Source: an uncultured delta proteobacterium
GTDB lineage: Bacteria > Desulfobacterota > Binatia > UBA9968
DNA length: 64,000 bases
Reading direction: 5' to 3'
Assembly: GCA_963816145.1 (NCBI GenBank)
Contig: CAWFJP010000018.1
Coordinates: 208,462-272,461, forward strand
Part shown: positions 24,862-54,083 of the stretch, piece by piece
How positions within the stretch are numbered: the first letter of the stretch is position 1
How the letters are laid out: every line of letters begins with the position of its first letter
Position numbers and translations under genes: made by a program
Notes under the pieces: model-generated
Databases searched by the model: none
What the model was told of the DNA's origin: nothing
The model's input: only the letters and a program-made list of their open reading frames with translations

Positions 24862-24993
24862 CAGACTGTGTCGCAACTGTCATTTCGAGGTGAAGCCGAG
24901 AAATCTCTTCTTCGTATGTGGCTGAAAACACGAGATCCCTCGCTGCGCTCGGGATGACAGATGTGGGGCATTTGCTCATTACGACACAGTCTC
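24862..24993. mobile_element. MITE copy 1 (132 bp, 15-bp TIR, TAC target duplication)
   Basis: tac|CAGACTGTGTCGCAA...TTACGACACAGTCTC|tac, inside the palindrome CCTCCCCGC...GCGGGGGAGG. Confidence 0.85.
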
Positions 24994-25067
24994 TACGCGG
25001 GGGAGGATATAGGTGGGGGTGGAACGTTTTGAACAGCTGGAACGATTGGAACCTGTGTCTTAATCGT

Positions 25068-26387
25068 TTACGCATACCGCGACATCGTCTGCGGCTTATA
25101 TTCATCAGGCGCTTGGGTAACGAATAGCTCCGGTTCGATGCCGTACAGCCGGCGGGCGTTGCCGCCGAGCATTTTCTCGCGCGCGCTCTGCGGCACTTGG
25201 TACTTGTCCATGTGATCGATGGCTTCCCAGACATCGGAGGCATCGAGATGCGGCATGTCGGACGACCATAGAGCGACGTTCTCGAACAGATCCCATAACC
25301 GGAGTGTAATCATCTCGTCGCTTTCGAAGGCGATGAAACACTGCTTGTAAAATACCTCGTGGGGGTCGCCGATTTTTTCACCGATATGCTTGTAAAGGTC
25401 AAGGTAGGTCTCGGCCTTTTCCAGCACCAGCGGCAGCCAGCTGGAGTTGGATTCCAAGATCGCCACTTTCAAACGCGGAAATTTTTCCAACCAGCCGGTC
25501 ATTAGCACGACCCCGGTCCAGGTCATCGCCTCGGCCATGAAGCCGTAGGCCGCATCGCCAGCCTGCTTGGAGCCCATGATCTGCATGATGTTGGCGACGA
25601 ACTGCCCCGGCGAGTAAACCATGATGTCTTCGTCCGAGAACAGCCGCTTGCGGTTGGCGCCCATGCGCTTGTCGAGTTCCGGTGACATCGCCTCACCGCG
25701 CGACGGGAAGGTATGCATGCCCAGCACCATGCCGAGTTCCTCAAACTCGCGCCACAACGGATCGTATTCAGGAAAGGTCGGATACTTACCCTGGGCGATG
25801 ATCGGCCGAACCAAAGCGGATTTGAAGCCGCGCTTGGCGACCCGGCGCAGTTCTTCGATGGCGAAATCGACATTCTGCGTTGGCAACACGGCGGCGGGAA
25901 ACAGCCGCTTCTTATCGGCGCTGCAATAATCGTAAGCCCAATCGTTGTAGGCGCGAGCGCAGATGTAAGCCGCGTCGGCGTTTTCCACCAGCGGTAGGTA
26001 AACGAAGGTCGACGGGAAAATCATCACCTGGTCGATTCCGGAAGCATCCATGTCTTTAAGCCGCGCATTGGGATCGCGCGCGCTTTTGTTGCGGCCGATG
26101 GTCTCGTCCCAGTCTTTGGTGCCGGGTTGAGTCTGGCCGATGATCTTCTTGGTCAATCCCGGATGCCAAGTTTCTCCGGGATATTTCCACTTGTCGGGAT
26201 CGCGAAAACTGATGCGCGAGTTGCGCACTAGAAACAACCGGTCCGAATCCCGATAGAAGTGCGTCTTCGCGAAATCGCGGTTGTTCTGCGGAATGTACTT
26301 GTCCCAAATCTCCGGCGGTTCGTAAATATGACTATCGCAGTCGAACACCGGAAAGTTTTTGCTTCTACCCTTTGCACTGTAAGCCAT
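25068..26387 (-). CDS. Amidohydrolase family 2 protein
   Basis: FDCDSH, ARLKDMD..GID, RAYNDW, GMH and WSSDMPH. Confidence 0.88.
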   Translation of the reverse strand: MAYSAKGRSKNFPVFDCDSHIYEPPEIWDKYIPQNNRDFAKTHFYRDSDRLFLVRNSRISFRDPDKWKYPGETWHPGLTKKIIGQTQPGTKDWDETIGRNKSARDPNARLKDMDASGIDQVMIFPSTFVYLPLVENADAAYICARAYNDWAYDYCSADKKRLFPAAVLPTQNVDFAIEELRRVAKRGFKSALVRPIIAQGKYPTFPEYDPLWREFEELGMVLGMHTFPSRGEAMSPELDKRMGANRKRLFSDEDIMVYSPGQFVANIMQIMGSKQAGDAAYGFMAEAMTWTGVVLMTGWLEKFPRLKVAILESNSSWLPLVLEKAETYLDLYKHIGEKIGDPHEVFYKQCFIAFESDEMITLRLWDLFENVALWSSDMPHLDASDVWEAIDHMDKYQVPQSAREKMLGGNARRLYGIEPELFVTQAPDEYKPQTMSRYA

Positions 26388-26455
26388 GTTGCCCCTCCGT
26401 CATTTCTTGTTCTTTCCTTCGTGAACTTCGTGTCCTTCGTGGTGATCAGTGTCTT

Positions 26456-27265
26456 TCAGCGGTTCAAAAACTCCCGCATCATGCCATGAACCTTTTCCGG
26501 CTCGGTATAGAAGTAACTATGCCGCGCTCCCGGCAGGACGATCAGCTTCGAGTTAAGGATGCCCTTGGCCAAGATATCCGCGCCGCTGCGGTGCGACATG
26601 TCACTGACGACGAAGTGATCATCGTCGCCGACAAAGATCAGCGTCGGCACTTTGATATCTTTCAATCGTCCGCTGGTGTCATGCTCCTGGCGCGCCAGCA
26701 CATGGCGGAAGTAGAACTCCACCGGGCATAGATTCGCCATGCGCACCTGCAGATACTTCTCAATCTCGTTCATGTGGTTGCGTGCGTACTCCTCGGTCCA
26801 GCCGACCACGATGGTGTGATCCCGGACATATTTCACATAGCCCCACTCGACCATCTCCTTGGCGATGCGTAGCGGAATGCCGCGATCGCCCGGATGGGCG
26901 GCGCCGCTGGAGGCGAGAATCAACTTATTGACTTTGCCCGGATGGTCGAGGGCGAGCAGCTGCGCCACCCGCCCGCCCATGGAGTGACCGCAAACGATGG
27001 CGCCGTCGAGGCCAAGGTGATCGAGCACCGCGACGGCATCCTCGGCGAACATCGCCGTGCTGTATTTCGCCGACGGCTTTCCCGACAGCCCCGTGCCACG
27101 GTAATCGAGCGTCACGACGCAGTAATCGCGAGCGAACTCCGGTGTCTGATAAAGATTCCACACCGCGCCGTCGCAAGCGGTCTCGCTCAAAAACAAAAAC
27201 GGCGCTCCCTTGCCAGTGGCCTCGTAGTAAATCTCAACTCCGTCTTTAGCTTTAGCATAAGGCAT
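26456..27265 (-). CDS. Alpha/beta hydrolase
   Basis: IYYE..G.G.P, DYRGTGLS, GHSMGG, GDDD and ARH. AAGGAG RBS. Confidence 0.88.
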   Translation of the reverse strand: MPYAKAKDGVEIYYEATGKGAPFLFLSETACDGAVWNLYQTPEFARDYCVVTLDYRGTGLSGKPSAKYSTAMFAEDAVAVLDHLGLDGAIVCGHSMGGRVAQLLALDHPGKVNKLILASSGAAHPGDRGIPLRIAKEMVEWGYVKYVRDHTIVVGWTEEYARNHMNEIEKYLQVRMANLCPVEFYFRHVLARQEHDTSGRLKDIKVPTLIFVGDDDHFVVSDMSHRSGADILAKGILNSKLIVLPGARHSYFYTEPEKVHGMMREFLNR

Positions 27266-27470
27266 GGATCGGTCTCCTTGCTTGCAGCAATAAACCAAGA
27301 GTGGCGTTCATGACAAGTCTAGAGTCCGGGGGTCTTGCCTTAAAGAGTGCGCCTATTAGAGACGGTCCAAGTCTGAAAACCTAGACGCTAAACACCTAAC
27401 TGAAAATACCTGTTGACAGCCTGCCATCGCCCCCACTATTCAAGGCAATACAACGATCGGAGGACAGACG

Positions 27471-28499
27471 ATGGCGAACCGATTTGTCGACTGCGACGGT
27501 CATGTCATGGAAAACACCGATGAGATCATCCGGCTCGTCGGCGAACCGTTCAAAACCACCGGCCACATGAATCCGCGGCGGGTGTTGCCAAGCCTCGACC
27601 GCTTCCACACGCCGCGCTTGGAAGAGCGCAAGCCCGGCACCTTCGATCCCACCGTCGGCCCGGAAAAATGGGTGCAGTTTCTCGACAAGATGGGTCTCGA
27701 ATTCAGCGCGCTGTTCCCCACCGAAGGACTCGCCTACGGCCAGGTCGCCTTCGCGCCCTGGGCGATCGCCTACGCCAAAGCCTACAACGACTGGCTCGTC
27801 GCGAAGTATTTAAAGTACAACTCGCGCCTCAAAGGCGTCGCCTTGATTCCGCTGCAAGATGTCCCCGCTGCCGTAACCGAGTTGCGGCGGGCAATAAAAG
27901 ACCTGGGTATGGTTGGCGCCATGCTGCCATCCAATGGTTTGAATCCGCATCTGAGCGCCAAACATTTCTGGCCGGTGTATGAAGAAGCGGCCAAGCTTGA
28001 CTGTGCGCTGGCCGTGCATGGCGGTTGCTATGGCGACTTGGGATTCAACACTTACACGGTCTTCCCGGCCACCCGCGCCCTCGGCATGCCGGTTCCCCTC
28101 GCGATCGCCGCCACCGGTATGATCGTCGACGGCGTGTTCGATGAGTTTCCAACCTTGCGCGTCGGGTTCTTGGAAGGCGGCACCTGCTGGATACCCATGG
28201 TCCTCGACCGGTTGGCGAGAGAGCAAGAATATGGCGGCTTGCGGATCAATCGAAAGCCGGTGGACTACTTCACCTGCGGTAAAATATTCTGCAGTTGCGA
28301 AGGCAACGAGAAAGCGCTCGCCTACGCCATCGAACGGGTCGGCCCGGCGCCATTCATGTTCGCCTCGGACTTCCCCCATGAAATTTCGTTGGATAATTGC
28401 TTGGAAGAGATCGACGAAATCCAAGTGCGCAAAGATCTCAAGGACGAACACAAAGCCGCGATCTTGGGCGAGAACGCGCGGCGCTATTACAAAATCTAG
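27471..28499 (+). CDS. Amidohydrolase family 2 protein
   Basis: VDCDGH, AYNDW, AVHGG, FLEGG and FASDFPH. GGAGG RBS with TTGACA upstream. Confidence 0.88.
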   Translation: MANRFVDCDGHVMENTDEIIRLVGEPFKTTGHMNPRRVLPSLDRFHTPRLEERKPGTFDPTVGPEKWVQFLDKMGLEFSALFPTEGLAYGQVAFAPWAIAYAKAYNDWLVAKYLKYNSRLKGVALIPLQDVPAAVTELRRAIKDLGMVGAMLPSNGLNPHLSAKHFWPVYEEAAKLDCALAVHGGCYGDLGFNTYTVFPATRALGMPVPLAIAATGMIVDGVFDEFPTLRVGFLEGGTCWIPMVLDRLAREQEYGGLRINRKPVDYFTCGKIFCSCEGNEKALAYAIERVGPAPFMFASDFPHEISLDNCLEEIDEIQVRKDLKDEHKAAILGENARRYYKI

Positions 28500-28527
28500 G
28501 CTGTCGGCAAAAGCGCGGGGTTCAATT

Positions 28528-29550
28528 ATGAAAATGACCATCCGAAACCTTCGTGTCCTTCGTGCCTTCGTGGTGAGTAGCCTACTGGCAGTTTCGTTCA
28601 CTGCCCAAGCGCAGACCCTGACGCCGATCCTGGTCGCCTACGCCGGCCAAAACGAAACCGCCGGTCCCATGTGGGTCGGTGTCGAGCGCGGTACTTTCAG
28701 AAAATACGGCCTCGATGTCCGCATGGTACAGCTGCGCAACGGCTCCCTCAGCATGGCGACTCTCGCCAACGGCCAGGTACAATACAACTACGGCTCGCCG
28801 GCCAACGCTCTGAGCGCCGCGGCCGGCGGCATGCGCCTCCAATGCGTCGCCTCTGCCGTGGCCAAGATTCCCCGCGAGCTGGTCGCGCGCAAAGAAATCC
28901 GCACGCTCGAAGAGCTGCGCGGCAAGTCGTTCGGCGTGCAAAGCATCGGCGGCGGTTTCTGGCTGCAAACCATGATCGCGTTAGATTTTCTCGGCATCGA
29001 TCCGGACAAGTACGATCTCAAGATGCGCATCTTGGGCGACACTGCCACGGTCACCCAGGCGCTCGGTACCGGCGGCGTCGACGCCACGGTAATTCCTTAC
29101 AGCTTCAGCGAAGCCGCCAAACGCGCCGGCGCCAACGTTCTGGCCGACATCGGCAAATTGCCGATCCCCTACCAAGGCACGACGATCTGCTTTTTGCGTG
29201 ACTCACCGTCGCACAACCCGGATATCATTTCCCGCTTACTCAAAGGCCTGGTCGATTCCGTAGTTATGATTCACGATCCCAGCGCCAGACTCGATGTCAC
29301 CGAGATCCTGCGCAAGAGTTTTCGTTTTCCCCGGCTCGAAGACGCCGAGGCGTCGTACAAAGTGCTGGGACAAATGGCAACCATCGACCTACTGCCGGAT
29401 GTCGCGGCTTGGAAAATCGTCCAGCGCATCGTCGCCCGCATCAACCCCAAAGTCGCCCAGGTCGATATCACCCAACTGAACAACCCGGCCTATGTCCGCG
29501 CTCTCGAAGACAGCGGCTTTTTGCCTGACGCCCGGCGCAGGTTGCGATGA
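28528..29550 (+). CDS. ABC-type substrate-binding protein (NMT1/SsuA-like)
   Basis: Signal peptide ending TAQA, G.FRKYGLDV and EELRGKSFGVQSIGGG. The ORF-track extension to 28141 overlaps the upstream gene. Confidence 0.83.
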   Translation: MKMTIRNLRVLRAFVVSSLLAVSFTAQAQTLTPILVAYAGQNETAGPMWVGVERGTFRKYGLDVRMVQLRNGSLSMATLANGQVQYNYGSPANALSAAAGGMRLQCVASAVAKIPRELVARKEIRTLEELRGKSFGVQSIGGGFWLQTMIALDFLGIDPDKYDLKMRILGDTATVTQALGTGGVDATVIPYSFSEAAKRAGANVLADIGKLPIPYQGTTICFLRDSPSHNPDIISRLLKGLVDSVVMIHDPSARLDVTEILRKSFRFPRLEDAEASYKVLGQMATIDLLPDVAAWKIVQRIVARINPKVAQVDITQLNNPAYVRALEDSGFLPDARRRLR

Positions 29551-29563
29551 CTGCGACGGACCA

Positions 29564-29646
29564 TTCACCACGAAGGGCACGAAGAGCACGAACTTCGGAA
29601 GAATATTCATCCGAAATCTTCGTGTCCTTCGTGCCTTCGTGGTGAA
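29564..29646. repeat. Repeat family B (TTCACCACGAAG(N)n...CTTCGTGGTGAA, built of 9-mer units)
   Basis: Full copies also at 35088-35170, 47265-47338, 58685-58756 and 40804-41014 (interrupted). Half copies at 26417-26445 and 28540-28576, and a variant at 12521-12589. Confidence 0.88.
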
Positions 29647-29704
29647 GTAATAAACCGCACATGGCGCATCATCCGCACCACCATTAGAAAAGGAACATAC
29701 CATC

Positions 29705-30862
29705 ATGCTGCAAGGTTACCGCATCTTTGACGCCGACGCTCACGGCTCGATCAATCCCAGCATGTGGGGAGACTTGCCGGAAAAGTTTCGCGCGCGACGG
29801 CCGCGGCCGGTGACGATTCATGACGATGCGGGATTAGGCAATTTCAACGCCGGATGGTTGATCGAGGGTTCGCTCGAACCGCACGCTCTCGGTCCCGGCG
29901 CTCAACAAGCGAATACACCACGCAATGTGTTAGTAGAGTTTGGCGCCAACCTGAGTCGCGAGCATTGTTCCATCGGCAGCATGACGCTCAACGATCCGCG
30001 GGCGCGGCTGGCAGACATGAATCGCATGGGTTTCGATGTCCAAATGATTTTCCCAAGCACGCTTTACGCTCATATGACCAACGACCCGGAATTCGAAGCG
30101 GCGCTGTGCCGCGCTTACAACCGTTTTGTCGCCAAGCAGTGCGCGGCCAACTCCCAACGTCTCAAATGGTCGGGCTTATTGCCGCTGCGCGAGCCGCGCC
30201 AGGCGCTGGCGGCCATCGAAGAGATGCAGCGCTTGGGCGCGCGCGCCGCCGTGGTGTTCGGCACCGCCGGTGAACGGCTGCTTTCCGATCCGAGCTTTCT
30301 GCCGATTTGGGATGAGTTCGCCAAAACCAAGCTGCCGCTCTGCGTCCACATGGGCATGAGCTATCCGCCGCTGGCCCAGCTAGGCCGGAGCATTTACGAC
30401 GGTCATATCATCGGCATGTCTTTGCCGGCGCAGTTGGCGTTCATGGCTATCGTCGGCCACCGCATGCTCGATCGTTATCAAGAGTTGAAAGTGGCGTTTT
30501 TGGAATTTGGCGCCGAGTGGATTTTCTACATGGTGTCGCGCATGGACCATTATCTGCCGCTCGACCGCGGCGCCCACCCGTTCGGCTTGAGCATGCCCAA
30601 CGCCGCCGACCTGCCGCGCGCCAGTATCCGCGACTACGTCAAATCCGGCCGTATCTTTATGGCCGCCGAAGCCGACGATCGCATGTTACAGCAACTATTT
30701 GACTTGATCGGCGAAGACCAGGTGCTGTTCTCTTCGGACTTTCCCCATGGCGAAGGCCGCGACAACGCCGCCCTGGAAATTCTCGAACGGCCGGACCTTT
30801 CTGCTTTACAGAAGCGCAAACTGCTTTATGACAACACCGTGCGCTTTTTCGGCGAGCCGTGA
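29705..30862 (+). CDS. Amidohydrolase family 2 protein
   Basis: FDADAH, RLADM, RAYN, CVHMG and FSSDFPH. Confidence 0.88.
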   Translation: MLQGYRIFDADAHGSINPSMWGDLPEKFRARRPRPVTIHDDAGLGNFNAGWLIEGSLEPHALGPGAQQANTPRNVLVEFGANLSREHCSIGSMTLNDPRARLADMNRMGFDVQMIFPSTLYAHMTNDPEFEAALCRAYNRFVAKQCAANSQRLKWSGLLPLREPRQALAAIEEMQRLGARAAVVFGTAGERLLSDPSFLPIWDEFAKTKLPLCVHMGMSYPPLAQLGRSIYDGHIIGMSLPAQLAFMAIVGHRMLDRYQELKVAFLEFGAEWIFYMVSRMDHYLPLDRGAHPFGLSMPNAADLPRASIRDYVKSGRIFMAAEADDRMLQQLFDLIGEDQVLFSSDFPHGEGRDNAALEILERPDLSALQKRKLLYDNTVRFFGEP

Positions 30863-31021
30863 TAGTTCTCAGCTACCAGTGCTATTTTCTGATCTCTGGT
30901 TTTATTCCCGGCTTAGCGGCTTGCCAGATACTGTGGCCACAGCTTCCCCAAACGGGCGGCGACGTTGTTATAATCCCCAACTGAAGGCGGCAAGATTGCA
31001 CTCAACTGGGATGACTAACGC

Positions 31022-31867: not shown

Positions 31868-31877
31868 CTGTCGTAGA

Positions 31878-33041: not shown

Positions 33042-33313
33042 AACTTATTTTACCAAAATACCAGTGAACCTTTTCATTAACGAAGAACCATTTGCAAGTA
33101 CGCGAGACAACCTCTGTAGCTTAGACGCTAAGAATAGCATTATCACCCCGCTATCTGTCAAATATTATATATTAGAGTGGTAGTGATTTGCCCGATCGCC
33201 CAGTGCCCAATCGCCGTAAGCCACAGCGCCGGCGCCGCTTCCCATCCGCGGATAGTTACGATAAGTAGGGATTCACATTCTTGCCGGTCGCAATCTCTCA
33301 GGAGGAATCCAAA

Positions 33314-34021: not shown

Positions 34022-34063
34022 ACAGCGTCGATCGAAGTAGCCTCGGTCAAGCCCAGCGGGACG

Positions 34064-35017: not shown

Positions 35018-35183
35018 CTGCTCCTCTTATTTCGTCGCAGTCATCTTGCGGTGAATTAATGATTTAGTTGCCACGAGATAATTCAAGTTCACCACGAAGG
35101 ACGCGAAGAGCATGAAGTTCGGAGTTTTGCTCATCCGAAACCTTCGTGTCCTTCGTGATCTTCGTGGTGATGTTCTAATTCCA

Positions 35184-40768: not shown

Positions 40769-40871
40769 GCGCAGGACGGTAACTAAATGCGAAAACTTTT
40801 ATTACCACGAAGGCACGCAGAGCACGAGGGTCTCGGAAAAATGATTTTACCTTCGCGTCCTTCGCGCCTTC

Positions 40872-41003
40872 GAGACTGTGTCGCAACTGTCATTTCGAGG
40901 TGAAGCCGAGAAATCTCTTCTTCGTATGTGGCTGAAAACACGAGATCCCTCGCTGCGCTCGGGATGACAAATGTGGGGCATTTGCGCATTACGACACAGC
41001 CTC
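40872..41003. mobile_element. MITE copy 2 (132 bp), inserted in a family B repeat
   Basis: ttc|GAGACTGTGTCGCAA...TTACGACACAGCCTC|atc. The duplication is imperfect. Confidence 0.85.
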
Positions 41004-41077
41004 ATCGTGGTGAAATCAGAGTCTTCAGTCACGATTAAATCGACACCAACAACACCTTAGGAATCGAGACGCAATCC

Positions 41078-42067: not shown

Positions 42068-42114
42068 TTCCACTGATCGGGTTAAGTCATCGAACCGCTT
42101 GAGGTTCCACAATT

Positions 42115-42750: not shown

Positions 42751-42877
42751 CCCATTCTCTTGGACTATCGCCTCGTGCCTGTTGCCTATTGCCTTTTATC
42801 AACAATTGACAGCCGCACTGTCTATCTATTAAGGTGCGGTTATATCTCAGAGCTAGTCCGATAAGGAGGATCGACCA

Positions 42878-43930
42878 ATGGCCTTTGTAAGTGATCTCAT
42901 CATTTCATCCGACTCTCACGTCATGGAACCGGTAGACTTGTGGAAAAAGGGCGTCTCGGAAAAATACCGCGACACGGCGCCGCTTTTTCCGCCGCATCAA
43001 GTCGGCGAAGGTTTCCAGCAACACGCCGGCGGTTGGGACGCCAAAGCGCGCATGCGCGAAATGGAAGCCGATGGCTTGAGTGCCGAGGTGCTTTACCCTA
43101 CCTTGGGTCTTGATCTCTTCGGTCTCGACGATGCCGGTTTGCAGGAAGAATGTTTTCGCGTTTACAACGATTGGCTGATCGACTATTGCAGCACCGACAC
43201 AACCCGCCTGATCGGCATTCCCGCCATTGCGGTTTACAACGTCGACAACGGCATCAAGGAACTCGAGCGCTGCCGCAAGGCCGGGTTGAAAGGGGCGATC
43301 ATCTGGCAGGCGCCGCACAAAGATCTACCCTTCACCTCCGACCATTATGAAAAGTTCTGGTCGGCTTGCGAAGAGTTGGACGCGCCGGTGAGCCTGCATA
43401 TCTTGACCGGCCACAGCTACAACAAGGACAAGAATCGCAAGGGCGTCGAGCGCTATCGTGGCAGCGTCAACTTAAAACTCATGGACATCGCCAATGCGCT
43501 CTTCGAGCTGGTATTCTGCGGTGTGCTTGAGCGACATCCCAAGCTCAAAATCGTCTCGGTGGAAAACGAGTCCGGCTGGATGCCCTGGATCTTCCAGCAG
43601 TGGGACTACTACTACAACCGCTTCAAGAAGGAGAACCCGCCGGCCTTCTCTCGCAACCCGAGCAGCTACGTCAAGGATCAGATCTACGCCTGCTTCTTCA
43701 ACGACCATGTGTGCGGCGAGAATCTCGCCTTCTGGGGCCAGGACAACATCATGTGGTCCAATGACTTCCCCCATCCCAATTCGACCTGGCCGAACTCGAT
43801 CAAGATCATCCAACGCGATCTCGGCCATCTGCCGGAAGAAACCCAGCGTAAAGTCGTGTGCGACAACGTCTGCCGGCTCTACGACATCGACGCGTCGAAA
43901 CTACCGCGGGTGCAAAAACAAGCGGCGTAA
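42878..43930 (+). CDS. Amidohydrolase family 2 protein
   Basis: ISSDSH, YNDW, SLH and WSNDFPH. AGGAGG RBS with TTGACA upstream. Confidence 0.88.
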   Translation: MAFVSDLIISSDSHVMEPVDLWKKGVSEKYRDTAPLFPPHQVGEGFQQHAGGWDAKARMREMEADGLSAEVLYPTLGLDLFGLDDAGLQEECFRVYNDWLIDYCSTDTTRLIGIPAIAVYNVDNGIKELERCRKAGLKGAIIWQAPHKDLPFTSDHYEKFWSACEELDAPVSLHILTGHSYNKDKNRKGVERYRGSVNLKLMDIANALFELVFCGVLERHPKLKIVSVENESGWMPWIFQQWDYYYNRFKKENPPAFSRNPSSYVKDQIYACFFNDHVCGENLAFWGQDNIMWSNDFPHPNSTWPNSIKIIQRDLGHLPEETQRKVVCDNVCRLYDIDASKLPRVQKQAA

Positions 43931-43956
43931 CACGCCATAAGTTAGAGATGGGAAAT

Positions 43957-43985
43957 GTGGGGGCGGGTTTGAAACCCGCCCCTAC
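43957..43985. repeat. GTAG-type REP palindrome
   Basis: GTGGGGGCGGGTTTGAAACCCGCCCCTAC. Another GTAG-type unit lies at 44591-44620. Confidence 0.7.
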
Positions 43986-44006
43986 GCATTTGGAGCGCAA
44001 AGACCG

Positions 44007-44567
44007 ATGACCTACTCACTGCAACAATTCATCAAAGACCTCACCAGCATCACCGACCGCTACCAAGAGCAAGAGAAAATCGTCGCCGTGGCGAAACCGC
44101 TGCTTGCTGAACTGGTCAAAAATCCTGACTGCATCGAAGCGCGGTTCAAACACCATGGCGGCAAAGCCTATGGCCGCTACATGCTGCACCGCGCGCCGCG
44201 TTTCAACGTCACCTCGGTGGTCTGGGGCCCCGGCGACGGCGCTAAAGCGCATAACCATGACACCTGGGGCTTGGTCGGCGTCGTCGAAAACGAACTGCAA
44301 GAAACTCGCTTCAAGCGCCGCGACGACGGCAGCAAGGAAGGTTACGCCGAATTAGCAGCATCCGGGGTGAATCAGAACCAAGCGGGCATGGTCTCGACGC
44401 TGATAGCCCCGGAAGACGACATCCACGAGATGCTCAACATAACGCAAAAAAATACCGTCGAAGTTCATGTCTACGGCATAGACTTAGCCAATTATCAGCG
44501 GCTGCAATTCGACGTCGCCAATAAATCAGTGAAGTTTTTTGCCAGCGCCAAGTATGATAACTGCTAA
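44007..44567 (+). CDS. Cysteine/thiol dioxygenase family protein
   Basis: YGRYML, WGPG, HNH.TWG, DIH and VHVYG (3-His facial triad and His-Tyr). Confidence 0.82.
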   Translation: MTYSLQQFIKDLTSITDRYQEQEKIVAVAKPLLAELVKNPDCIEARFKHHGGKAYGRYMLHRAPRFNVTSVVWGPGDGAKAHNHDTWGLVGVVENELQETRFKRRDDGSKEGYAELAASGVNQNQAGMVSTLIAPEDDIHEMLNITQKNTVEVHVYGIDLANYQRLQFDVANKSVKFFASAKYDNC

Positions 44568-44631
44568 GGTATAGGATGAACTGACTCACGGTAGGATGGG
44601 TCGAGCGTAGCGATACCCATTGTTCCGACGC

Positions 44632-46185: not shown

Positions 46186-46284
46186 AACTTGAATTTATCC
46201 CAACCCGAATGAAACTTGAACCCACTGGCGGTTTCTGTTCTACTTGGGTCTGCGGCAAATTTAAGCGCACTTCTGGAGGATCCC

Positions 46285-47244
46285 ATGGCAGCGATTCATG
46301 AAAAGTTCAGCGGTCTATTTATCCCGTATGTCACCCCGTTTAACCAAGATGGTTCCCTGGATGGCGAAAGTCTCTCGCGCCTGACGAAACACTTCGCCGC
46401 TCTGCCCGGCGTCGCCGGTCTAGTGTCCTGCGCGCGCATTGGCGAAAGCCCGGTCTTAAGCATTCAGGAAAAGCGCCAGGTGTACGAAGTCTGCGGCAAG
46501 ATCGCCCGCGACGCCGGCAAAGTCCATATCGCCGCCATCGCGCCCCAATCCACCGACGAAGCGGTCGCGCTCATGCGCGATCTGGAGAATCTCGCCGTCG
46601 ACGGCGTGATGATTTTTCCACCGCTGCTGTTTTCCTGGGGCAAGGTCGATAACAACTTAAAAGTCCGCTTCTTTGAAGACTTGGCGCGCGAGACCAAGCT
46701 CCCGGTCGTGCTATTTCAGATCCCGGTGAAAAGCTACTACTACGATCCCGACACTATCTGCCGCATCGCCAGGCTGGACAACGTCGTCGCCTTTAAAGAA
46801 GCATCCTTCGACATCGAGCTGTTTACCAACACCGCAAAGCAGTTGCAGCGTGACAAATCCCCCATGCGCATTCTAACCGGCAACGATCGTTTCGTCGCCG
46901 AGAGTTATCAGTTGGGCGCCCACGGCGCGCTCATCGGCGTCGCCAACGTCGCCACCGAGAAATGGGGCGCCATGGACTTCGCCGGCCGCGCCGGCAAGTT
47001 CGACGAGGCGTTTCGAATTCAGAAAGAACTAGAGTCGGTGAAAGAACTGGTCTTCAGCGAACCGATCGTCGAAGCGGTGGCGCGCATCAAAGCGGTCCTG
47101 CACTACGAAGGCTTAATCAAGACCGCCACCGTGCGCCGGCCGCAATTAGGCATCTCCGAAGCGGAAAAGAAACAACTACTGGAAAGCTACCGCGCCCTCA
47201 AGAACAACGAGTTCCGCCCCCAAAGCGCCCATCAAGCGGCGTAG
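46285..47244 (+). CDS. DapA/NAL-family class I aldolase
   Basis: VTPF..DG.LD, GE...LS..E, FKEAS (Schiff-base Lys) and LTGND. GGAGG RBS. Confidence 0.85.
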   Translation: MAAIHEKFSGLFIPYVTPFNQDGSLDGESLSRLTKHFAALPGVAGLVSCARIGESPVLSIQEKRQVYEVCGKIARDAGKVHIAAIAPQSTDEAVALMRDLENLAVDGVMIFPPLLFSWGKVDNNLKVRFFEDLARETKLPVVLFQIPVKSYYYDPDTICRIARLDNVVAFKEASFDIELFTNTAKQLQRDKSPMRILTGNDRFVAESYQLGAHGALIGVANVATEKWGAMDFAGRAGKFDEAFRIQKELESVKELVFSEPIVEAVARIKAVLHYEGLIKTATVRRPQLGISEAEKKQLLESYRALKNNEFRPQSAHQAA

Positions 47245-47363
47245 AAGAAAAAATTACCAGACATTTCACCACGAAGAGTACGAAGGTTGCGGAAATTTCA
47301 TTTCCGGACTTCGTGCTCTTCGTGACCTTCGTGGTGAATATGTATTTGCCTTATTCGCGGCTG

Positions 47364-48632
47364 TCACTCAGCCCCTCGGCTGGGAATCACCAAGGCGAAA
47401 AGCGCAGTCGTCACCGCCAATAACACCATGGCACTGATCGCCAGCGACCAGTGAATGCCGATCAACCCGCCGACGACGCCCACCGTGACGCCGCTGAAGG
47501 CGCGCAGGCCGTTGTTCGAGGTATTGAACAGGCCGATCAATCTACCGCGCAACTGCGGCGGCGCTTGCAACTGCACCAACGTCTGCGCCATCGAGAGAAA
47601 CGCCAAGTTGAGTACCCCGGAGCCGAATAGCAGCGCCAATGCGAGCATGTAGTTGGTCGCGGCGGCGAAGCCGACAATCGTAAGGCACCAGAGGATCGAA
47701 CAAATCGCCGCGTTGCGCGCATTAGCCTTGAGCCAACCGGTACCTTCCAGGAGCAGGCCTCCGGCCGCCGCGCCGGCGGCATTGGCGCCGAGTAACATGC
47801 TGTACGCCCAGTCTTGCTTATCGTGGCCGAAGTCATGGGCAAACTCCGGCATCTGCGCTTGAAATGCGTTACCCACGAGCAAGGACGTGGCGCCGCCCAA
47901 CAGGATCATCGAAAGGATCGTCGGATTGGACGCAGTTTCGCGTAAGAGTTGCAAAGCCCCCGCGAGGCTCACCCTGCCTGCCTTTGGCGCATTCGGTTCA
48001 TCCCGGCCATGGCCGGTGTAGGGCAGGATGAACAAGTAGAGAACTGCCGGCAGGTACATCAGTACATTGAGGAACAGTCCGGTCGGCCCGCCGAACAAGA
48101 GCATCGTCGCACCGCCTACGGCGGGACCGAATAGGATCGCAATGTTGCGCCCCGTGGAGTTCAAACGCACCGCGCTTTGTAAGTATTCGCGGCCGACGAT
48201 GTCGTGAATAATCAGTTGGCTGGCGGGTTGACCCAAAACGCCCGACAGACCGTGGAGCACCAGCAGCGCGCATGCACTCCACACTTCAATCGTGTCGGTA
48301 AGAAACAAGATACCCCAAGTGAGCGAAACCAAGCCATACATGGCTTGGGCAATTTGTATCAACCGGCGACAATCATAGCGATCGGCCAGGGCACCGAAGT
48401 AGACGGCAAAAAACAGAAACGGCGTCCAATGGCTGATGACGGCGAAGCCGGCGAGCACCGGCGAATGAAATTTTTGATAGAGCAGCCAATAGCTGATCAC
48501 ATGCTCGATGTTGTCGCCCATCTGCGCCAACATGAGGACGACAAAATATCGCCGGTAGTCGGCATGATGCAGCGCCGCGAAGGCAACCCGCCCTGCCGAT
48601 CGCTGGTTGGAAGATCGAGATTGATTAGCCAT
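47364..48632 (-). CDS. MFS transporter (paralog 3 of tandem triplet)
   Basis: DNIEHVISYW and ADRYDCR shared with neighbours. About 12 TM segments. Confidence 0.88.
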   Translation of the reverse strand: MANQSRSSNQRSAGRVAFAALHHADYRRYFVVLMLAQMGDNIEHVISYWLLYQKFHSPVLAGFAVISHWTPFLFFAVYFGALADRYDCRRLIQIAQAMYGLVSLTWGILFLTDTIEVWSACALLVLHGLSGVLGQPASQLIIHDIVGREYLQSAVRLNSTGRNIAILFGPAVGGATMLLFGGPTGLFLNVLMYLPAVLYLFILPYTGHGRDEPNAPKAGRVSLAGALQLLRETASNPTILSMILLGGATSLLVGNAFQAQMPEFAHDFGHDKQDWAYSMLLGANAAGAAAGGLLLEGTGWLKANARNAAICSILWCLTIVGFAAATNYMLALALLFGSGVLNLAFLSMAQTLVQLQAPPQLRGRLIGLFNTSNNGLRAFSGVTVGVVGGLIGIHWSLAISAMVLLAVTTALFALVIPSRGAE

Positions 48633-48729
48633 GGTCAGGAAATAAGCCAAGGATGGCGGCGGAAGTATGAATGACGAAATTCAGCTTCGGAGGCTTTCGC
48701 CTTCAACTTCAACCCTCCGCTCTCATCCT

Positions 48730-49992
48730 TCACCCTTGAACGACCTTCTCCTTCCGCGGTCCCGGTACTGCAAACGCGAACAACGCCAGCGTGATCGCCA
48801 TCAGCACCATCGCGCTCAACGCTAGCGACCAGTGCACACCGATCAAGCCGCCGGCGACGCCGACCGTGACGCCGCTGAAGGCCTTGAATCCCATGCTGGT
48901 CATGGAAAAAAGACCGATCACGCGGCCGCGCAGTTGCGCCGGCGAGCCCAGCTGCACAATCGTCTGGGCCATCGACGAGAAGGTCAGATTCAACACACCG
49001 GCGACAAACAGCAGCGCCAACGATAAATAGTAATTGGACGACAGCGCGAACGCCGCGATGGCGGCGCACCAGAGGATCGCGCTCGAGATCGCCGTCTTGA
49101 CATTGGGCGGCAACCAGGATCGCCCTTCGAGTAAGAAGCCGCCGACCACAGCACCTGCGGCGTTGGCGCCAAGCAACGCGCTGTAAGCAAAGTTGGCTTT
49201 ATCGGTGCCGAGGTCATGGGCAAATTCGGGCATGGTCGCTTGAAACGCCGAGCCGACGAAGAACGACACGCAGCCGCCCAAAACCACCATGGTCGTGACC
49301 GGCCGGTTGCTCGACACCTTGCGGATCACCTCGAAGGCGTCGCCCCAGCTGATCGCCCGCCGCGCCGGCGCGGCGCCTTCCCGGCTATGGCCGGTGTAAG
49401 GCACCGAAAGAAGCCATAAGGTTAGCGGCAGATAGATCAGCGTGTTGACCACCAACCCTACCGGCGGACTGAACATCAACATCAAACCGCCACCCACTGC
49501 CGGTCCGAATAGAATTCCCAGCTGCCGGCTCGTCGAGTTGAGCCGGATCGCACTCTGCAACTGCTCGCGGCCGACGATATCGTGAATCAGCAGCTGGCTG
49601 CCCGGCCCCCAAAGCACGCCCGCCATGCCATGAATCACCAGCAACACACAGGCTTGCCAGACTTGAATGGTATCGGTCCAAAAAAGAATAGCCCACGCCG
49701 CCGACACACCCATGTACATGATCTGCGCTACCTGAATCACTTTGCGGCAATCGTAGCGGTCCGCCATGGCGCCAAAATAGACGGCGAAAAGCAAAAACGG
49801 CGTCCAGTGACTGAGCACGGCGAAACCGGCCAACACCGGCGATTTGAATTTCTCGTAGAGCAGCCAGTAACTGATCACATGCTCTATGTTATCGGCCATC
49901 ATGGCCAACGCCGTGGTCCAAAAATAGCTTCGAAAATCCCTGTGATGTAGTGCGGCGAAAGGAAACTTCTTGTCGGATTCAGCAGATGCCAA
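48730..49992 (-). CDS. MFS transporter (paralog 2)
   Basis: Same motifs as its neighbours. TTG start. Confidence 0.88.
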   Translation of the reverse strand: MASAESDKKFPFAALHHRDFRSYFWTTALAMMADNIEHVISYWLLYEKFKSPVLAGFAVLSHWTPFLLFAVYFGAMADRYDCRKVIQVAQIMYMGVSAAWAILFWTDTIQVWQACVLLVIHGMAGVLWGPGSQLLIHDIVGREQLQSAIRLNSTSRQLGILFGPAVGGGLMLMFSPPVGLVVNTLIYLPLTLWLLSVPYTGHSREGAAPARRAISWGDAFEVIRKVSSNRPVTTMVVLGGCVSFFVGSAFQATMPEFAHDLGTDKANFAYSALLGANAAGAVVGGFLLEGRSWLPPNVKTAISSAILWCAAIAAFALSSNYYLSLALLFVAGVLNLTFSSMAQTIVQLGSPAQLRGRVIGLFSMTSMGFKAFSGVTVGVAGGLIGVHWSLALSAMVLMAITLALFAFAVPGPRKEKVVQG

Positions 49993-50221
49993 TACGGTGC
50001 TCCAAATTGCTCAGACTAAATCCGGACAGTAACCAATATCGAATAACGACGCAAACCACCGGACGGCAATCTTAAATTCGTCATTCCGGCGCACGCCGGA
50101 ATCCAGGCCTTTTGTTGTTAGCGCTGAAATTCGCCGGCGAAGATGTCTGCCGGTCTTCACCGTCATGGCGGAGCTTCACTCAGGGGACGATGAAAAGTTT
50201 ACTACGAATGCGCACGATCAC

Positions 50222-51502
50222 TCATCCCGGCTCGACAACCGTTTGCCGTTGCTGGGCGAAGCCGAACAACGCAAGGGTCACCGCCAGCAACACCAAAGAG
50301 CTCAAGGCCAACGACCAATGAATGCCGATCAAACCGCCGATCACGCCGACGGTGAGCCCACTAAAGGCGCGCAGACCGAAGGCCGACATCGAGAATAGGC
50401 CAATCAACCGGCCGCGCAGATGGGTCGGCGCTTCCAGCTGCACGATGGTCTGGGCGATCGAGTAGAACGCGAGATTCAGGGCGCCGGCGATAAATAACAA
50501 CGTCAAGGACAAGGGATAGCTCTTGGAAAAAGCGAACGCCGTCATCGCCAGGCACCAGAGAATCGCACAGCTGATCGCAGCTTTCACCGTCGGCGGCACC
50601 CATTGTTTGCCGTCGAGGACAAAACCGCCGAATACCGAACCAGCGGCATTGGCGGCGAGCAGCGCACTGTAGGCAAAATCGGCCTTGTCGGTGCCAAGAT
50701 CATGGGCAAACTCCGGCATGCTCGCTTGGAATGCGTTACCGACAAAGAGTGATGCCGCACCGCCGAGAACGATCATCGTCACGATGGAACGGTGCTGCGC
50801 CACTTCGCGCAACACGTTCGCCGCGTCGCGCCAACGCAACCCGCGCCGCGCCGGCGCCCCTTCGCGCAAGTGGCCGGTGTAGGGCACCAGCATGAGCCAA
50901 ATCGTCAGCGGCAAATAAATCGCCGCGTTGATCAATAACCCCGCCGGCGCGCCCAACCAGAGCATCATGGCGCCGCCTACCGCCGGACCGAACAGAATGC
51001 CCAATTGGCGCGCCGTGGCGTTCAAGCGCACCGCACTGGGCAAATCGTCGCCGCCGACGATGTCGTGAATCATCAAGATCTCCGCCGGCGTCCAGAACAC
51101 CCCGGCGATGCCGTGGATCACCAAGAGAACGCAGGCATGCCAGATTTGAATCGTATCGGTCAAAAACAGGACTGCCCAAAGCGCCGTCACGCCCATGTAC
51201 ATGACTTGGGCGATCTGGATCAGTTTGCGGCAGTCATACCGGTCGGCCAAACCGCCGAAATAAACTGACAATAAAAGAAACGGCGTCCAGTGACTGATGA
51301 CGGCGAAACCGGCAAGCACCGGCGATTGAAACTTTTGGAACAACACCCAATAGCTGATCACATGCTCGATATTGTCGGCCATCATGGCGAGCATGGTGGC
51401 GATGAGAAACCAGCGGTAATCCCTATGCTTCAGCGCCGCGAAGGCAACTTTCGGCGGCGCAACATTTGCATTTGTCGAGGTGCTTGGGGTGCGTGAATCC
51501 AA
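50222..51502 (-). CDS. MFS transporter (paralog 1)
   Basis: Same motifs as its neighbours. TTG start. Confidence 0.88.
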   Translation of the reverse strand: MDSRTPSTSTNANVAPPKVAFAALKHRDYRWFLIATMLAMMADNIEHVISYWVLFQKFQSPVLAGFAVISHWTPFLLLSVYFGGLADRYDCRKLIQIAQVMYMGVTALWAVLFLTDTIQIWHACVLLVIHGIAGVFWTPAEILMIHDIVGGDDLPSAVRLNATARQLGILFGPAVGGAMMLWLGAPAGLLINAAIYLPLTIWLMLVPYTGHLREGAPARRGLRWRDAANVLREVAQHRSIVTMIVLGGAASLFVGNAFQASMPEFAHDLGTDKADFAYSALLAANAAGSVFGGFVLDGKQWVPPTVKAAISCAILWCLAMTAFAFSKSYPLSLTLLFIAGALNLAFYSIAQTIVQLEAPTHLRGRLIGLFSMSAFGLRAFSGLTVGVIGGLIGIHWSLALSSLVLLAVTLALFGFAQQRQTVVEPG

Positions 51503-51601
51503 TGAGGTATCCGATCAGCCAACCGTAGAATTTCAAACTAACGGATATTGACGGTCGGTGCAAATCTGGGGTTAGCGAAACTCTTTTAAGAAATAATTTC
51601 C

Positions 51602-52939
51602 TTGCCATCTTCGGCTGCTTCTGGGAAAAACGAAGCAGCACCGAAACAACCTCGAGGCGCCGCACTGAAACCCCTCCGGCAAATATTTTCGCAAACCTTC
51701 ATCGGCTGGCGCATGGTCGGTCTAGTCTCGGCGCTGCGCGTGCTCGGCGGCGGCCTGCACAACTACGGCTTCACGGTGTTTTTTTTGCCGATCAGCACCG
51801 ACCTGGGTTTGAACCGCGCCGAGACCTCCCTAGCCTTCTCCTTGGCGCGCGCCCAGGGCGCGATCGAGGGCCCCTTTGTCGGCTATCTCATCGATCGTTT
51901 CGGTCCCAAGCCGATGATCCTGACCGCGGTGCTCCTAACCGGCTTGGGTTACGTATGCCTCGGCTGGGTGCATAGCTACACGACTTTTCTAATCGTCTAT
52001 CTCGGCATCATCTCGCTGTCATTCACGCCCGGCTTTGTCCATGCGCCCATGGCGGTGGGCAACACTTGGTTCATTCGCTATCGCGCCCGTGCCATGACCG
52101 TGATCAGCTCGGCTGTGCCTATCGGCGGCACGCTCCTGACGCCGTTGCTCGCCATCGCCGTGCAACAATGGGGTTGGCGCTGGGGCGCCATCCTCGGCGG
52201 CTTGTCCTTTCTAATTATCGGCATTCCGCTCGGCCTCGGTGTGCGCTCATCGCCCGAGAGCCTGGGCCTACTTCCCGACGGCGCCGCGCCTGAAACGAAC
52301 ACCAGTGCAACCGCCGCCGATCGTTCCATCGCGCCAGCCATAAAAGAAGATCCGACACTGCGCGAGGCGATGACGACTTGGATATTTTGGCTGTTCGTCG
52401 TCGGCATGACGGTGCGCGTCGGCGCCTACAGCACGATCAGCGTCCACTTCGTGCCGATCATGGTTTGGAAAGGCATGTCGCAGGAAGGCGCGGCGTTGTT
52501 ACTGGCGAGCTTCGCCTTTTTGAATTGGGCGGCGCACTATGTCATCGGTTGGTTCGCTGACACCACCAACCGGCCGAAACTTTTGACCTTGTGCATGCTC
52601 GCCGCCGCAGCTTCGATGTTATTGTTGGTCTTGGGCGACGGCGCGTGGCCGTTATGGGCCTTTACCATCGGATTTACCGCAATCGATGCTTCGTTTCCGA
52701 TCGTATGGGCCACCATCGGCGACTTCTTTGGCCGCAAATATTTCGCCACCATCCGCGGCACGATGTCTTTCTTCTACACCTGGGGCAGTGTGCTCGGGCC
52801 GGTCATCGCCGGCGCCGCCTACGACCGCAGCCAAAGCTATGTCGCGACCTTGTACGGCTTAGTGGCGATACTCCTACTCGGCGCCATTCTCACGGCGATG
52901 ACGATCAAACCGTGGAGAGAAATAATGGATAATGGATAA
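51602..52939 (+). CDS. MFS transporter (OFA/MCT-like)
   Basis: YGFTVFF.P, GYLIDRFGPK, WF...R.RA and FFGRKYFATIRG. Start uncertain. Confidence 0.85.
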   Translation: MPSSAASGKNEAAPKQPRGAALKPLRQIFSQTFIGWRMVGLVSALRVLGGGLHNYGFTVFFLPISTDLGLNRAETSLAFSLARAQGAIEGPFVGYLIDRFGPKPMILTAVLLTGLGYVCLGWVHSYTTFLIVYLGIISLSFTPGFVHAPMAVGNTWFIRYRARAMTVISSAVPIGGTLLTPLLAIAVQQWGWRWGAILGGLSFLIIGIPLGLGVRSSPESLGLLPDGAAPETNTSATAADRSIAPAIKEDPTLREAMTTWIFWLFVVGMTVRVGAYSTISVHFVPIMVWKGMSQEGAALLLASFAFLNWAAHYVIGWFADTTNRPKLLTLCMLAAAASMLLLVLGDGAWPLWAFTIGFTAIDASFPIVWATIGDFFGRKYFATIRGTMSFFYTWGSVLGPVIAGAAYDRSQSYVATLYGLVAILLLGAILTAMTIKPWREIMDNG

Positions 52940-53007
52940 TTGAGAATGGAAAATGATAATCCGGATCCGGATTATCATTTTCCATTCTCAATTATCCATT
53001 ATCCATT
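52924..53007. repeat. 84-bp perfect palindrome between convergent genes (probable bidirectional terminator)
   Basis: 42-nt arm AATGGATAATGGATAATTGAGAATGGAAAATGATAATCCGGA followed immediately by its exact reverse complement. Confidence 0.9.
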
Positions 53008-53009
53008 TG

Positions 53010-53915
53010 TTATCCCCTCGTCTTCGACATTTTTGGATCGAGGGCATCGCGCAGGGCATCACCGAGCAGATTGAAACTCATTAACGCGAAGAAGATAAAG
53101 AGTCCGGGCAAAAATACTTGCAACGGTGCAATGAAGATATTGGTCGCGGCATTGGTGAGTAGATTTCCCCAACTCGGCGTCGGCGGCTGAATGCCCAGAC
53201 CGAGAAAACTCAAGGTCGTCTCGGCGCGGATCGCCGCGCCGGCATCAAGCGTCGCCGAAACGATCAACGGCCCCAAAGCATTCGGCAGCAAATGACGCAA
53301 CATCACGCGCCAGCGCGAAGCCCCGAGACATTGCGCCGCCAAGACAAACTCTTGCTCGCGAAACGACAAGACCGCGCTGCGCGCCAAGCGCGCCGCGTTG
53401 GTCCATTCCAGAGCGACGAGAATGACGATGATATTGAGCAGGCCCGGCCCGGCCAGCTTGGACAGGACCAACAGCAGGACGATGCGCGGTATGGTGTAAA
53501 TGGTGTCCACCAGGCGCATGAGAGCATTATCCAGCGCGCCGCCGACATAGCCGGCCAGAATGCCGATTAGCCCGCCGATCAGAACAGTGCTCAACGCCAC
53601 CGCCAATCCCACGGTCAAGGAGACGCGCCCGCCATGCATGATGCGCACCCAAGTATCCCGCCCGAGCTCATCGGTGCCGAGCCAATGGCGCGCCGACGGC
53701 ATCTGCATGCGCTCCGACAGCGAAACTTGGTCGAGTTCATAAGAAACCAGAGAGGGACCGACTATCACCGCAAGCAGCAACGTCACAAAGAAAAAGAAGC
53801 CGACGTAAGCGACCCTGTGCTGTTTGAAGCGGCGCCAGACGACCCTCCAGTAGCCGGCCGGCTCGGTGCTCTGCACAGGGTTCAAATGAACTATCGCTGG
53901 ATTATCGACTGCCAT
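53010..53915 (-). CDS. Peptide/nickel ABC transporter permease (DppC-like)
   Basis: HWLGTDELGRD, EFVLAA..LGAS and HLLPN. Confidence 0.9.
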   Translation of the reverse strand: MAVDNPAIVHLNPVQSTEPAGYWRVVWRRFKQHRVAYVGFFFFVTLLLAVIVGPSLVSYELDQVSLSERMQMPSARHWLGTDELGRDTWVRIMHGGRVSLTVGLAVALSTVLIGGLIGILAGYVGGALDNALMRLVDTIYTIPRIVLLLVLSKLAGPGLLNIIVILVALEWTNAARLARSAVLSFREQEFVLAAQCLGASRWRVMLRHLLPNALGPLIVSATLDAGAAIRAETTLSFLGLGIQPPTPSWGNLLTNAATNIFIAPLQVFLPGLFIFFALMSFNLLGDALRDALDPKMSKTRG

Positions 53916-53950
53916 TCTTCACCTCCCCGTCCTCTTTCCTCCCCCGCATC

Positions 53951-54083
53951 GAGACTGTGTCGCAACTGTCATTTCGAGGTGAAGCCGAGAAATCTCTTCT
54001 TCGTATGTGGCTGAAAACACGAGATCCCTCGCTGCGCTCGGGATGACAAATGTGGGGGCATTTGCGCATTACGACACAGCCTC
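53951..54083. mobile_element. MITE copy 3 (133 bp, ATC target duplication)
   Basis: atc|GAGACTGTGTCGCAA...TTACGACACAGCCTC|atc, inside CCTCCCCCGC...GCGGGGGAGG. Confidence 0.88.

Follow-up and report, generated by a model that had tools for sequence, protein, structure and literature searches.

A 132-bp MITE with IS1182-family ends and a class-specific preference for C-rich to G-rich hairpins in an uncultured Binatia genome

What decides where a transposable element without a transposase comes to rest, and what moves it? [quoted passage not shown] The window is positions 208462-272461 of contig C18 (CAWFJP010000018.1) in a genome (G000) of 7.82 Mb, 31 contigs, and 56.5% G+C, and the public runs containing the locus are soil and wetland metagenomes. 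An initial annotation of the window assigned IS1182/IS5-like ends to the element and held that it targets secondary structure rather than sequence. Our results support the first half of this description and not the second: the MITE is very probably a transposase-less derivative of an insertion sequence (IS) of the IS1182 family, mobilized in trans, with target choice biased to paired half-sites.

The MITE is 132 bp long and non-coding, has 15-bp terminal inverted repeats (TIRs), and in the window lies between open reading frames (ORFs). Copy 1 (24862..24993, + strand, 132 bp) is 97.7% identical to copy 2, belongs to a C-first subfamily, and is flanked by a target-site duplication (TSD) of TAC at 24859-24861 and 24994-24996. 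Copy 2 (40872..41003, + strand) is identical to five other genomic copies and stands between TTC (40869-40871) and ATC (41004-41006), which differ by one mismatch. Copy 3 (53951..54083, + strand) is 133 bp long, 99.2% identical, and flanked by ATC at 53948-53950 and 54084-54086. A TIR search and inspection of the flanks thus reproduced the annotated copies, TIRs, and triplets, with the detail that copy 1 begins CAGACT, not GAGACT. The TIR (GAGACTGTGTCGCAA, up to 3 mismatches) had 7 matches in the window, 6 of them the paired ends of the three copies; 1.56 were expected, and none of 100 shuffles reached 7. The element folds as a single long hairpin in which its two interior units pair with one another.

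Genome-wide blastn aligned 58 copies over at least 100 bp, of which 53 had at least 90% identity and 6 were identical in the copy 2 type. The 3-bp TSD was exact in 38 of the 53, where chance would give about 1/64, and the annotated boundaries with a 3-bp duplication were the best among 100 models that varied boundary shift and duplication length. Of these 53 copies, 28 open with G, 24 with C, and one with T; the C is linked to G at element position 100, and because it co-occurs with other diagnostic bases, we regard it as a heritable base of the element that marks a subfamily. For copies 2 and 3, contigs assembled from independent public runs cross the element boundary on either side and continue for 25-28 bases. 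Since they enter the element and the flanks are unique to each copy, the copies are not assembly artifacts, a possibility that the annotation had left standing. A short, non-coding, multi-copy element with TIRs and a fixed 3-bp TSD, whose TIRs match those of an autonomous IS and whose filled sites have empty orthologs (both below), is a MITE, and the annotation of a non-autonomous element was correct.

To examine target choice, we rebuilt each empty site as the left flank plus the right flank minus one triplet. The triplet fell in a 3-9-nt loop of a perfect stem of at least 7 bp in 24 of the 58 copies. Of 20,000 positions drawn at random from the genome, 0.29% had such a setting, and of 20,000 drawn outside long ORFs, 0.56%. 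Among 30 hairpin-adjacent copies, the center of the TSD was exactly on the dyad in 18 and no more than 1 nt off in 24; three copies in CCCCCCTTT…AAAGGGGGG hairpins were 2-3 nt off the dyad, directly beside the G-run. Insertion into a hairpin loop alone is no proof of structure-based targeting.

A census of hairpins was the decisive control. All MITE copies were excised in silico, and perfect hairpins with a stem of at least 8 bp and a loop of 3-9 nt were counted, giving 2,208 in total. The pyrimidine-first, CCCC-type class CCTYCCCC(C/G)…GGGGRAGG numbered 141, of which 19 were occupied, plus one binned as mixed (CCTCCCCCGCG) that was occupied too. None was occupied among 79 hairpins of the CCCTT(T) type (CCCCCTTT…AAAGGGGG), 29 purine-first hairpins, or the remaining mixed hairpins (about 1,958, including about 300 REP-like ATNCCGGC…GCCGGNAT hairpins; REP, repetitive extragenic palindrome). 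Occupancy was thus about 20/142 for the one class compared to 0/~2,066 for all other perfect hairpins. Because the occupied hairpins are confined to the CCTYCCCC…GGGGRAGG class, the MITE is not seeking hairpins in general. Hairpins with the arms ATGCCGGC/ATTCCGGC/ATACCGGC are very abundant, at about 240-300 perfect copies genome-wide. Their loops are all free of MITEs, although repeats with these arms do adjoin two MITE copies (C1:154772 and C3:787801).

Copies outside good hairpins had a C/T-rich left flank and a right flank of the form G-rich…AAGG. The half-site GGGGGAAGG (up to 2 mismatches, 0-3 nt from the triplet) was present on both sides in 24 of 53 copies, on one side in 14, and on neither in 15, compared to 0.012%, 0.9%, and 99.1% of random sites, a contrast whose size counts more than its exact value because the motif was scored on the same insertions from which it was derived. 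Non-hairpin sites carry degenerate GGGGGAAGG-like half-sites beside the TSD, those in the repeat called family B included. Given that hairpins outside the class are empty and that sites without a hairpin share the half-site, the proposal that the element targets secondary structure rather than sequence is not borne out.

The window itself illustrates both kinds of site. The host hairpin of copy 1 (24849..25019) has a C-rich arm CCTCCCCGCA (24849-24858), a G-rich arm GCGGGGGAGG (24997-25006), a spacer ATATA, and a G-rich segment GGTGGGGG (25012-25019) that mirrors the purine arm; it lies between the convergent ORFs 23839..24819 (+) and 25068..26387 (-). That of copy 3 (53938..54109) has arms CCTCCCCCGC (53938-53947) and GCGGGGGAGG (54087-54096), a spacer ATGAA, and the mirror segment GGTGGGGG (54102-54109); with copy 3 in place, the whole region is predicted to form a single long hairpin (-95.4 kcal/mol, z -8.8). 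Excision of copies 1 and 3 with one triplet each restores the palindromes CCTCCCCGCATACGCGGGGGAGG and CCTCCCCCGCATCGCGGGGGAGG, as annotated, and the uninterrupted version CCTCCCCCGCGACGCGGGGGAGG is indeed present at 62908-62930. That unoccupied target of the same class (CCTCCCCCGC-GAC-GCGGGGGAGG) spans 62895..62943 with its mirror segments on both sides, CCCCCTCC at 62895-62902 and GGTGGGGG at 62936-62943. Unoccupied hairpins of the class also occur about 80 nt away from several MITE copies. The family B repeat around copy 2 (40804..41013) is a long hairpin with a left arm ACCACGAAGGCACGCAGAGCACGAGGG starting at 40804 and a right arm CCTTCGCGTCCTTCGCGCCTTC|GTGGT. Copy 2 does interrupt it, in the 3' arm between CCTTC and GTGGT and outside the loop; however, family B is not a second kind of target. 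Only 5 of its 193 units genome-wide are occupied, every time at one GAA/TTC trinucleotide flanked by two degenerate half-sites.

Which transposase moves the element? We searched the genus with the DDE_Tnp_1_6 profile and scanned 30 loci for the TIR; two had exact inverted TIRs. (Tallies across the genus and family, namely those of MITE distribution, PF13586, copy 1 orthologs, DDE_Tnp_1_6, and the cognate transposase, also count the unpublished genomes G005 and/or G035, on neither of which any specific claim depends.) The IS in G023 (contig C31) is 1,717 bp long with a perfect 16-bp inverted repeat (IR), GAGACTGTGTCGCAAT, and a TSD of TTG, inside CCTTCCCCCG[TTG]AGGGGGAAGG. The IS in G018 (contig C14) is 1,668 bp long and lies inside CCTTCTCCC[ATTGA]GGGAGAAGG, followed by a mirror G-segment. 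Their ORFs encode 481 and 503 amino acids and are 73% identical; both proteins have the Pfam architecture DUF772 + DDE_Tnp_1 + DDE_Tnp_1_6 and score 346.8 and 349 bits on the NCBIfam model NF033551, 'IS1182 family transposase' (cut-off 270). Members of the IS1182 family are about 1.3-2 kb in length with a single long ORF and terminal IRs, and both IS conform. The first 15 nt of the MITE are common to both IS, and its right end resembles that of the G018 IS to about nt 28 with one indel; past that point the interior shares nothing with the parent IS. The annotated IS1182-like ends therefore belong to a real IS1182-family DDE transposon with TIRs identical over the first 15-16 nt.

Fragments of the same IS were found in G024 (two contig ends) and G009, each abutting a G-rich arm of the target kind. 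In G008 (contig C9, 1387-1828; locus L106), a 441-bp internally deleted IS also abuts a G-rich arm. With its first 94 codons retained and the REP doublet lacking, it represents a stage between IS and MITE. The genomes with the closest MITE copies (G019, G010, G002, and G021) had no cognate transposase at E ≤ 1e-20, and MITE matches were weak in G023 and G018, which hold the intact IS; many of these genomes are fragmented metagenome-assembled genomes (MAGs), so the split may be an effect of assembly. A TIR scan of G019 found MITE-like ends only.

The annotation had reported no transposase in the window, and this extends to the whole assembly: TIR-pair, transposase-neighborhood, protein, and DNA searches found none with these ends. 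TIR-like 15-mers (up to 4 mismatches) in inverted orientation 300-8000 bp apart formed 10,780 pairs, of which 2 had end-to-end identity, and both were two MITE copies. No TIR lay within 2.5 kb of the 18 transposase matches in this genome or near contig ends, and the ends of its multi-copy IS did not match the MITE TIR. This assembly holds no parent copy or remnant, so mobilization in trans by that transposase is presumed here. With the parent IS present in congeners and missing from this assembly, the approximately 58 copies count as orphans within the limits of the assembly. A MITE family can thus be abundant where the assembly lacks its parent, which is relevant to the annotation of MAGs.

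Several other candidates for a parent were rejected. Partner elements proposed by TIR scans of this genome turned out to be ordinary genes. IS of the IS427/IS1031 type, considered for their 3-bp TSD and GAG ends, were rejected since PF13340, PF13359, and PF13586 had no match in G000; among 41 genomes of the family, PF13586 exceeded its cut-off in just 2, and the IS there have ends unlike those of the MITE. The genome's own IS1182-type transposases form three lineages, also with differing ends. One of these IS, with a 533-amino-acid frame and an IR of about TGAGAAAAAAT, is found at C3:432454-434388, C14:231-233 kb, and C14:631-633 kb, each time in a similar repeat context with …ACCGCGGAGGCGC… on both sides, which suggests that it, too, has a repeat family as its target and perhaps generates a long duplication.

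An independent sample of the IS came from metagenome contigs scanned with the G018 transposase, which yielded 80 loci of 57-78% identity. Both TIRs were present 1.69-1.82 kb apart in 65 of these, one TIR in 14, and none in 1. Flanks were analyzed for the 52 loci with at least 20 nt on both sides. Complementary arms of at least 6 bp were present in 32 of the 52, and 31 of those 32 were of the C-rich to G-rich class. Half-sites were found on both sides in 30, on one side in 11, and on neither in 11. Because the metagenomic IS show the same C-rich to G-rich bias, the target habit belongs to the transposase clade. In several IS or MITE copies (metagenome loci L133, L143, L144, L179, and L205, and G000:C5:158327 in this genome), one flanking triplet is the reverse complement of the other (e.g., GAC/GTC and TCA/TGA), so that the flanks are perfectly palindromic as far as the element ends; possible causes are loop flipping and recombination between copies.

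Taken together, these data suggest the following mechanism. The parent DDE transposase would bind the 15-16-bp TIRs (GAGRCTGTGTCGYAA), move the element, and join it to the target with a 3-bp stagger that gives the 3-bp duplication. Target capture would strongly favor two half-sites in inverted orientation, CCTTCCCCC(N0-3)|NNN|(N0-3)GGGGGAAGG, with degenerate half-sites such as those of family B used less often. Since the abundant C-rich/G-rich hairpins of the genome offer two half-sites at the right spacing, insertion would fall on the dyad axis, in the loop, and in either orientation. The element is itself a long palindrome of TIRs and an inverted REP-like doublet, and with it in place an occupied site continues to fold as one extended hairpin. 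We infer that the transposase recognizes sequence half-sites and not the folded structure.

Several observations weigh against this reading, in addition to the derivation of the motif from the scored sites. An exact TSD is lacking in 15 of the 53 MITE copies, and 15 of 53 sites have no half-site at up to 2 mismatches; most of these have 3 mismatches per side. The G018 IS has no clean TSD, and only 12 of the 52 metagenomic IS have an exact one, with 11 more matching at two of three positions and 5 having inverted triplets; so weak a signal in these older, diverse IS copies counts against a simple picture. In this genome, the closest match to the cognate transposase reaches 28% identity, and at the DNA level neither IS has a match. 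Finally, computation cannot tell a preference for sequence from a structural preference that is peculiar to these C/G hairpins.

If the transposase recognized secondary structure as such, any hairpin or cruciform would serve and sequence would be irrelevant, as proposed for IS1272. That relative and TnSha1 have been reported in hairpins without a primary sequence consensus (PMC5678879, PMC4923244), and the centering of insertions on the dyad and the use of several arm sequences (CCTCCCCC, CCTTCCCCC, and CTCTCCC) fit such a mode; in addition, one metagenomic IS (L186) lies in an unrelated ATTCCGG hairpin, so that a structural component is conceivable. Yet the approximately 2,066 empty hairpins, the off-dyad copies beside the G-run, the half-site at non-hairpin sites, and the use of one fixed trinucleotide in a family B stem arm all make pure structure recognition improbable. 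Nor do we favor insertion that is nearly random, followed by purifying selection that keeps only hairpin-loop copies, where a palindromic element is harmless to function. The occupied site is still one hairpin and the three window copies are all intergenic, as such selection would have it, but equally tolerant intergenic hairpins (about 300 ATNCCGGC and 79 of the CCCCCTTT type) are unused at their loops, the exact dyad position and the fixed family B site are unexpected from selection alone, and autonomous IS show the same bias across 52 unrelated metagenomic sites. Selection as the sole cause is therefore very unlikely.

The cargo of the element raises a further alternative, in which the REP-like doublet is the mobile part. 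The interior consists of two inverted hairpin units of about 28 nt, GTCAT(T/C)(T/C)CGAG…CGAG(R)(R)ATCTC, and the annotated inverted pair of GTCA-type REPs is thus present. The unit (TGTCATTTCGAGCGAAGCGAGAAATCT) is also a standalone palindrome, with 115 regular-expression matches outside the MITE genome-wide (e.g., C1:87022-87054). Its head is GTCA, not GTAG or CGTC. Its stem would include a tandem G·A mismatch, and at the stem pair T24:A40, 40 copies have T:A, 12 have C:G, and one has T:G; the change to C:G may be a single inherited double change. Literature searches with the unit string found nothing, and those with other literal sequence strings returned primers or nothing. Could the doublet be a REPIN moved by a RAYT-type (REP-associated) tyrosine transposase, with the 'TIR' as no more than a palindromic landing site? 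The standalone units, 7 Y1_Tnp matches in the genome, and an interior unlike the parent IS beyond about 28 nt of its right end are in keeping with this, and REP dimers inside long palindromes have been described by Di Nocera et al. (PMC3733652). However, the TIRs are the ends of real IS1182-family IS and are themselves flanked by the 3-bp TSD, neither TIR pairs without the doublet nor this doublet arrangement without TIRs was seen in this genome, and none of the 6 Y1_Tnp loci examined had a unit within 1.5 kb. We consider this explanation extremely unlikely; at most it would account for the first acquisition of the cargo.

The host hairpins have a further feature. In most targets a G-rich segment that mirrors the purine arm follows, or precedes on the other strand, as in CCTTCCCCC-TCGAC-GGGGGAAGG-CTA-GGATGGGGG. 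One or two such segments (up to 1 mismatch, with T opposite A) accompany 114 of 130 C-rich-first perfect hairpins. In Holder et al. (2015, PMC4666352), intrastrand triplex motifs are laid out as C-rich 9, loop 3-6, G-rich 9, loop of about 3, and G-rich 9. The host hairpins, that of copy 1 included, have this architecture, which is that of purine-motif intrastrand triplex repeats, and are candidates for triplex formation. The TM_ECO motifs of that paper (CCCTCNCCC/GGGNGAGGG) have the same 9/loop/9/loop/9 layout as the host hairpins here (CCTTCCCCC/GGGGGAAGG/GGATGGGGG), and the likeness is one of layout only. In places the C-rich/G-rich hairpins stand between successive genes, one per 1.2-2.2 kb (e.g., G000:C8:35196-41120).

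MITE occupancy was 3/16 for hairpins with no mirror segment, 15/72 with one, and 2/42 with two, and MITE orientation relative to the mirror segment was unbiased (10 right, 8 left, and 1 both). Because hairpins without a mirror segment are occupied as well, the third G-segment is unnecessary for targeting. It is possible, but rather doubtful, that the IS1182-clade transposase reads a non-B feature of these triplex-type repeats, such as the C-tract/G-tract stem, possibly stabilized by the third G-segment, and that the repeats are dedicated landing pads. If so, they would serve a widespread clade of soil and sediment transposons, and a MITE burst could have occurred here even though the parent IS was later lost from the genome or was never more than a transient guest. 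Such a role would also offer a definite mechanism behind the genomic instability that Holder et al. (PMC4666352) linked statistically to triplex motifs; they report no transposases or integrases near the motifs, whereas here the host motif is a transposon landing site. A limited literature search found no paper connecting triplex-type repeats with transposon targeting, and the present case connects these two literatures, which were not found joined in the papers searched.

How does this behavior compare to that of known systems? The annotation had considered the nesting across two repeat families unusual, but palindrome targeting has already been reported for members of the IS1182 family. IS1272 and TnSha1 of staphylococci target palindromes or stem-loops, and Siguier et al. 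are cited for palindrome targeting by some IS1182 members (PMC5678879, PMC4923244). The cognate IS shares with them the transposase family (NF033551) and insertion into inverted-repeat or hairpin sequences. According to these papers, the cut made by IS1272 falls within the stem or at its foot, and the stem-loop is deleted, with no TSD and no consensus (PMC5678879, PMC4923244). The MITE, in contrast, inserts at the loop center, retains both arms, has a 3-bp TSD (38/53), and strongly prefers one hairpin sequence class, so it does not replace stem-loops. It is a clear new example of a known behavior, with a class-specific palindromic target. With about 110 independent insertion sites (MITE and IS), it is a well-quantified natural case of target selection in the IS1182 family, and its defined half-site and fixed 3-bp stagger complement the deletion-type, consensus-free behavior reported for IS1272.

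IS1397 and ISKpn1 insert into loops with a 3-4-bp duplication. They belong to the IS3 family, whereas the cognate IS here belongs to the IS1182 family and the abundant form is a MITE and not an IS. This genome has two rve-domain matches, neither IS3-like (one is a 559-amino-acid frame at the end of a contig, the other a weak hit), and no IS3-type rve OrfAB. The likeness is that both land specifically in palindromic repeats of the host, which for IS1397 and ISKpn1 are the REP/PU elements of enterobacteria; REP-targeting IS are documented in five IS families, with the specificity placed in the transposase (PMC1525189). The MITE body of QMITE2 of Coxiella burnetii likewise holds a REP-type palindrome, according to a review (PMC10969869). 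There, however, the REP is of the GTAG type and is the target of IS1111, whereas the cargo here is an inverted doublet with a GTCA head and the MITE itself targets a different palindromic repeat.

REPINs, which Bertels and Rainey reportedly described in 2011 as REP doublets, are like the MITE interior in being inverted pairs of short REP-like hairpin units. The doublet here differs in being enclosed by DDE-type TIRs and a TSD, and no RAYT association was found at the 6 Y1_Tnp loci.

Related genomes provided empty sites, as the annotation's reading of a recent insertion implied. G019 is the nearest species, with 88-92% identity in the genes flanking copy 3. Its orthologous spacer is missing precisely the element: the alignment picks up again after 4 nt, and the hairpin is uninterrupted though degenerate. 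At the copy 1 site, an intact hairpin is present at the corresponding place in G019 and G008, and five other congeners have unrelated spacers. The copy 2 site is a 9-50-nt spacer in 5 of 5 relatives checked, with neither family B nor the MITE. No empty alleles were seen within the population, where no contig bridges an empty site with at least 31 letters on each side, and contigs cannot show absence. Joints from 53947 to 54087 in three DNA runs and one RNA run were rejected as empty alleles; because their sides are only 22-25 letters with varying letters between, they are other copies of the hairpin. RNA contigs touching a MITE end were also rejected as a signal of transcription, which they do not show.

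MITE-related sequences were present in 30 of 30 genomes of the same genus, 34 of 36 genomes of the family, and none of 24 genomes of two sister families, and copies in relatives occupy the same type of target. The MITE family is thus old. The burst in this genome is fairly recent, since six copies are identical and orthologous sites are empty in the nearest species. Copies are clustered in places, with three within 4.2 kb (G000:C5:154272-158458) and three within 13.5 kb (C3:849925-863421).

A second MITE-like element of 162 bp (G000:C31:431813-431974) has related TIRs (GAAACTGTGTCGCAATTG…) and an interior of two CCCCCTTT…AAAGGGGG-type hairpins, with no GTCA doublet. Within the window, Rfam had no family match. 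Summed contig depth in the window bins 43661-44311, 46916-47566, and 49520-50170 was up 10- to 70-fold in three metagenomes, as at the MITE copies, which points to further high-copy repeats there.

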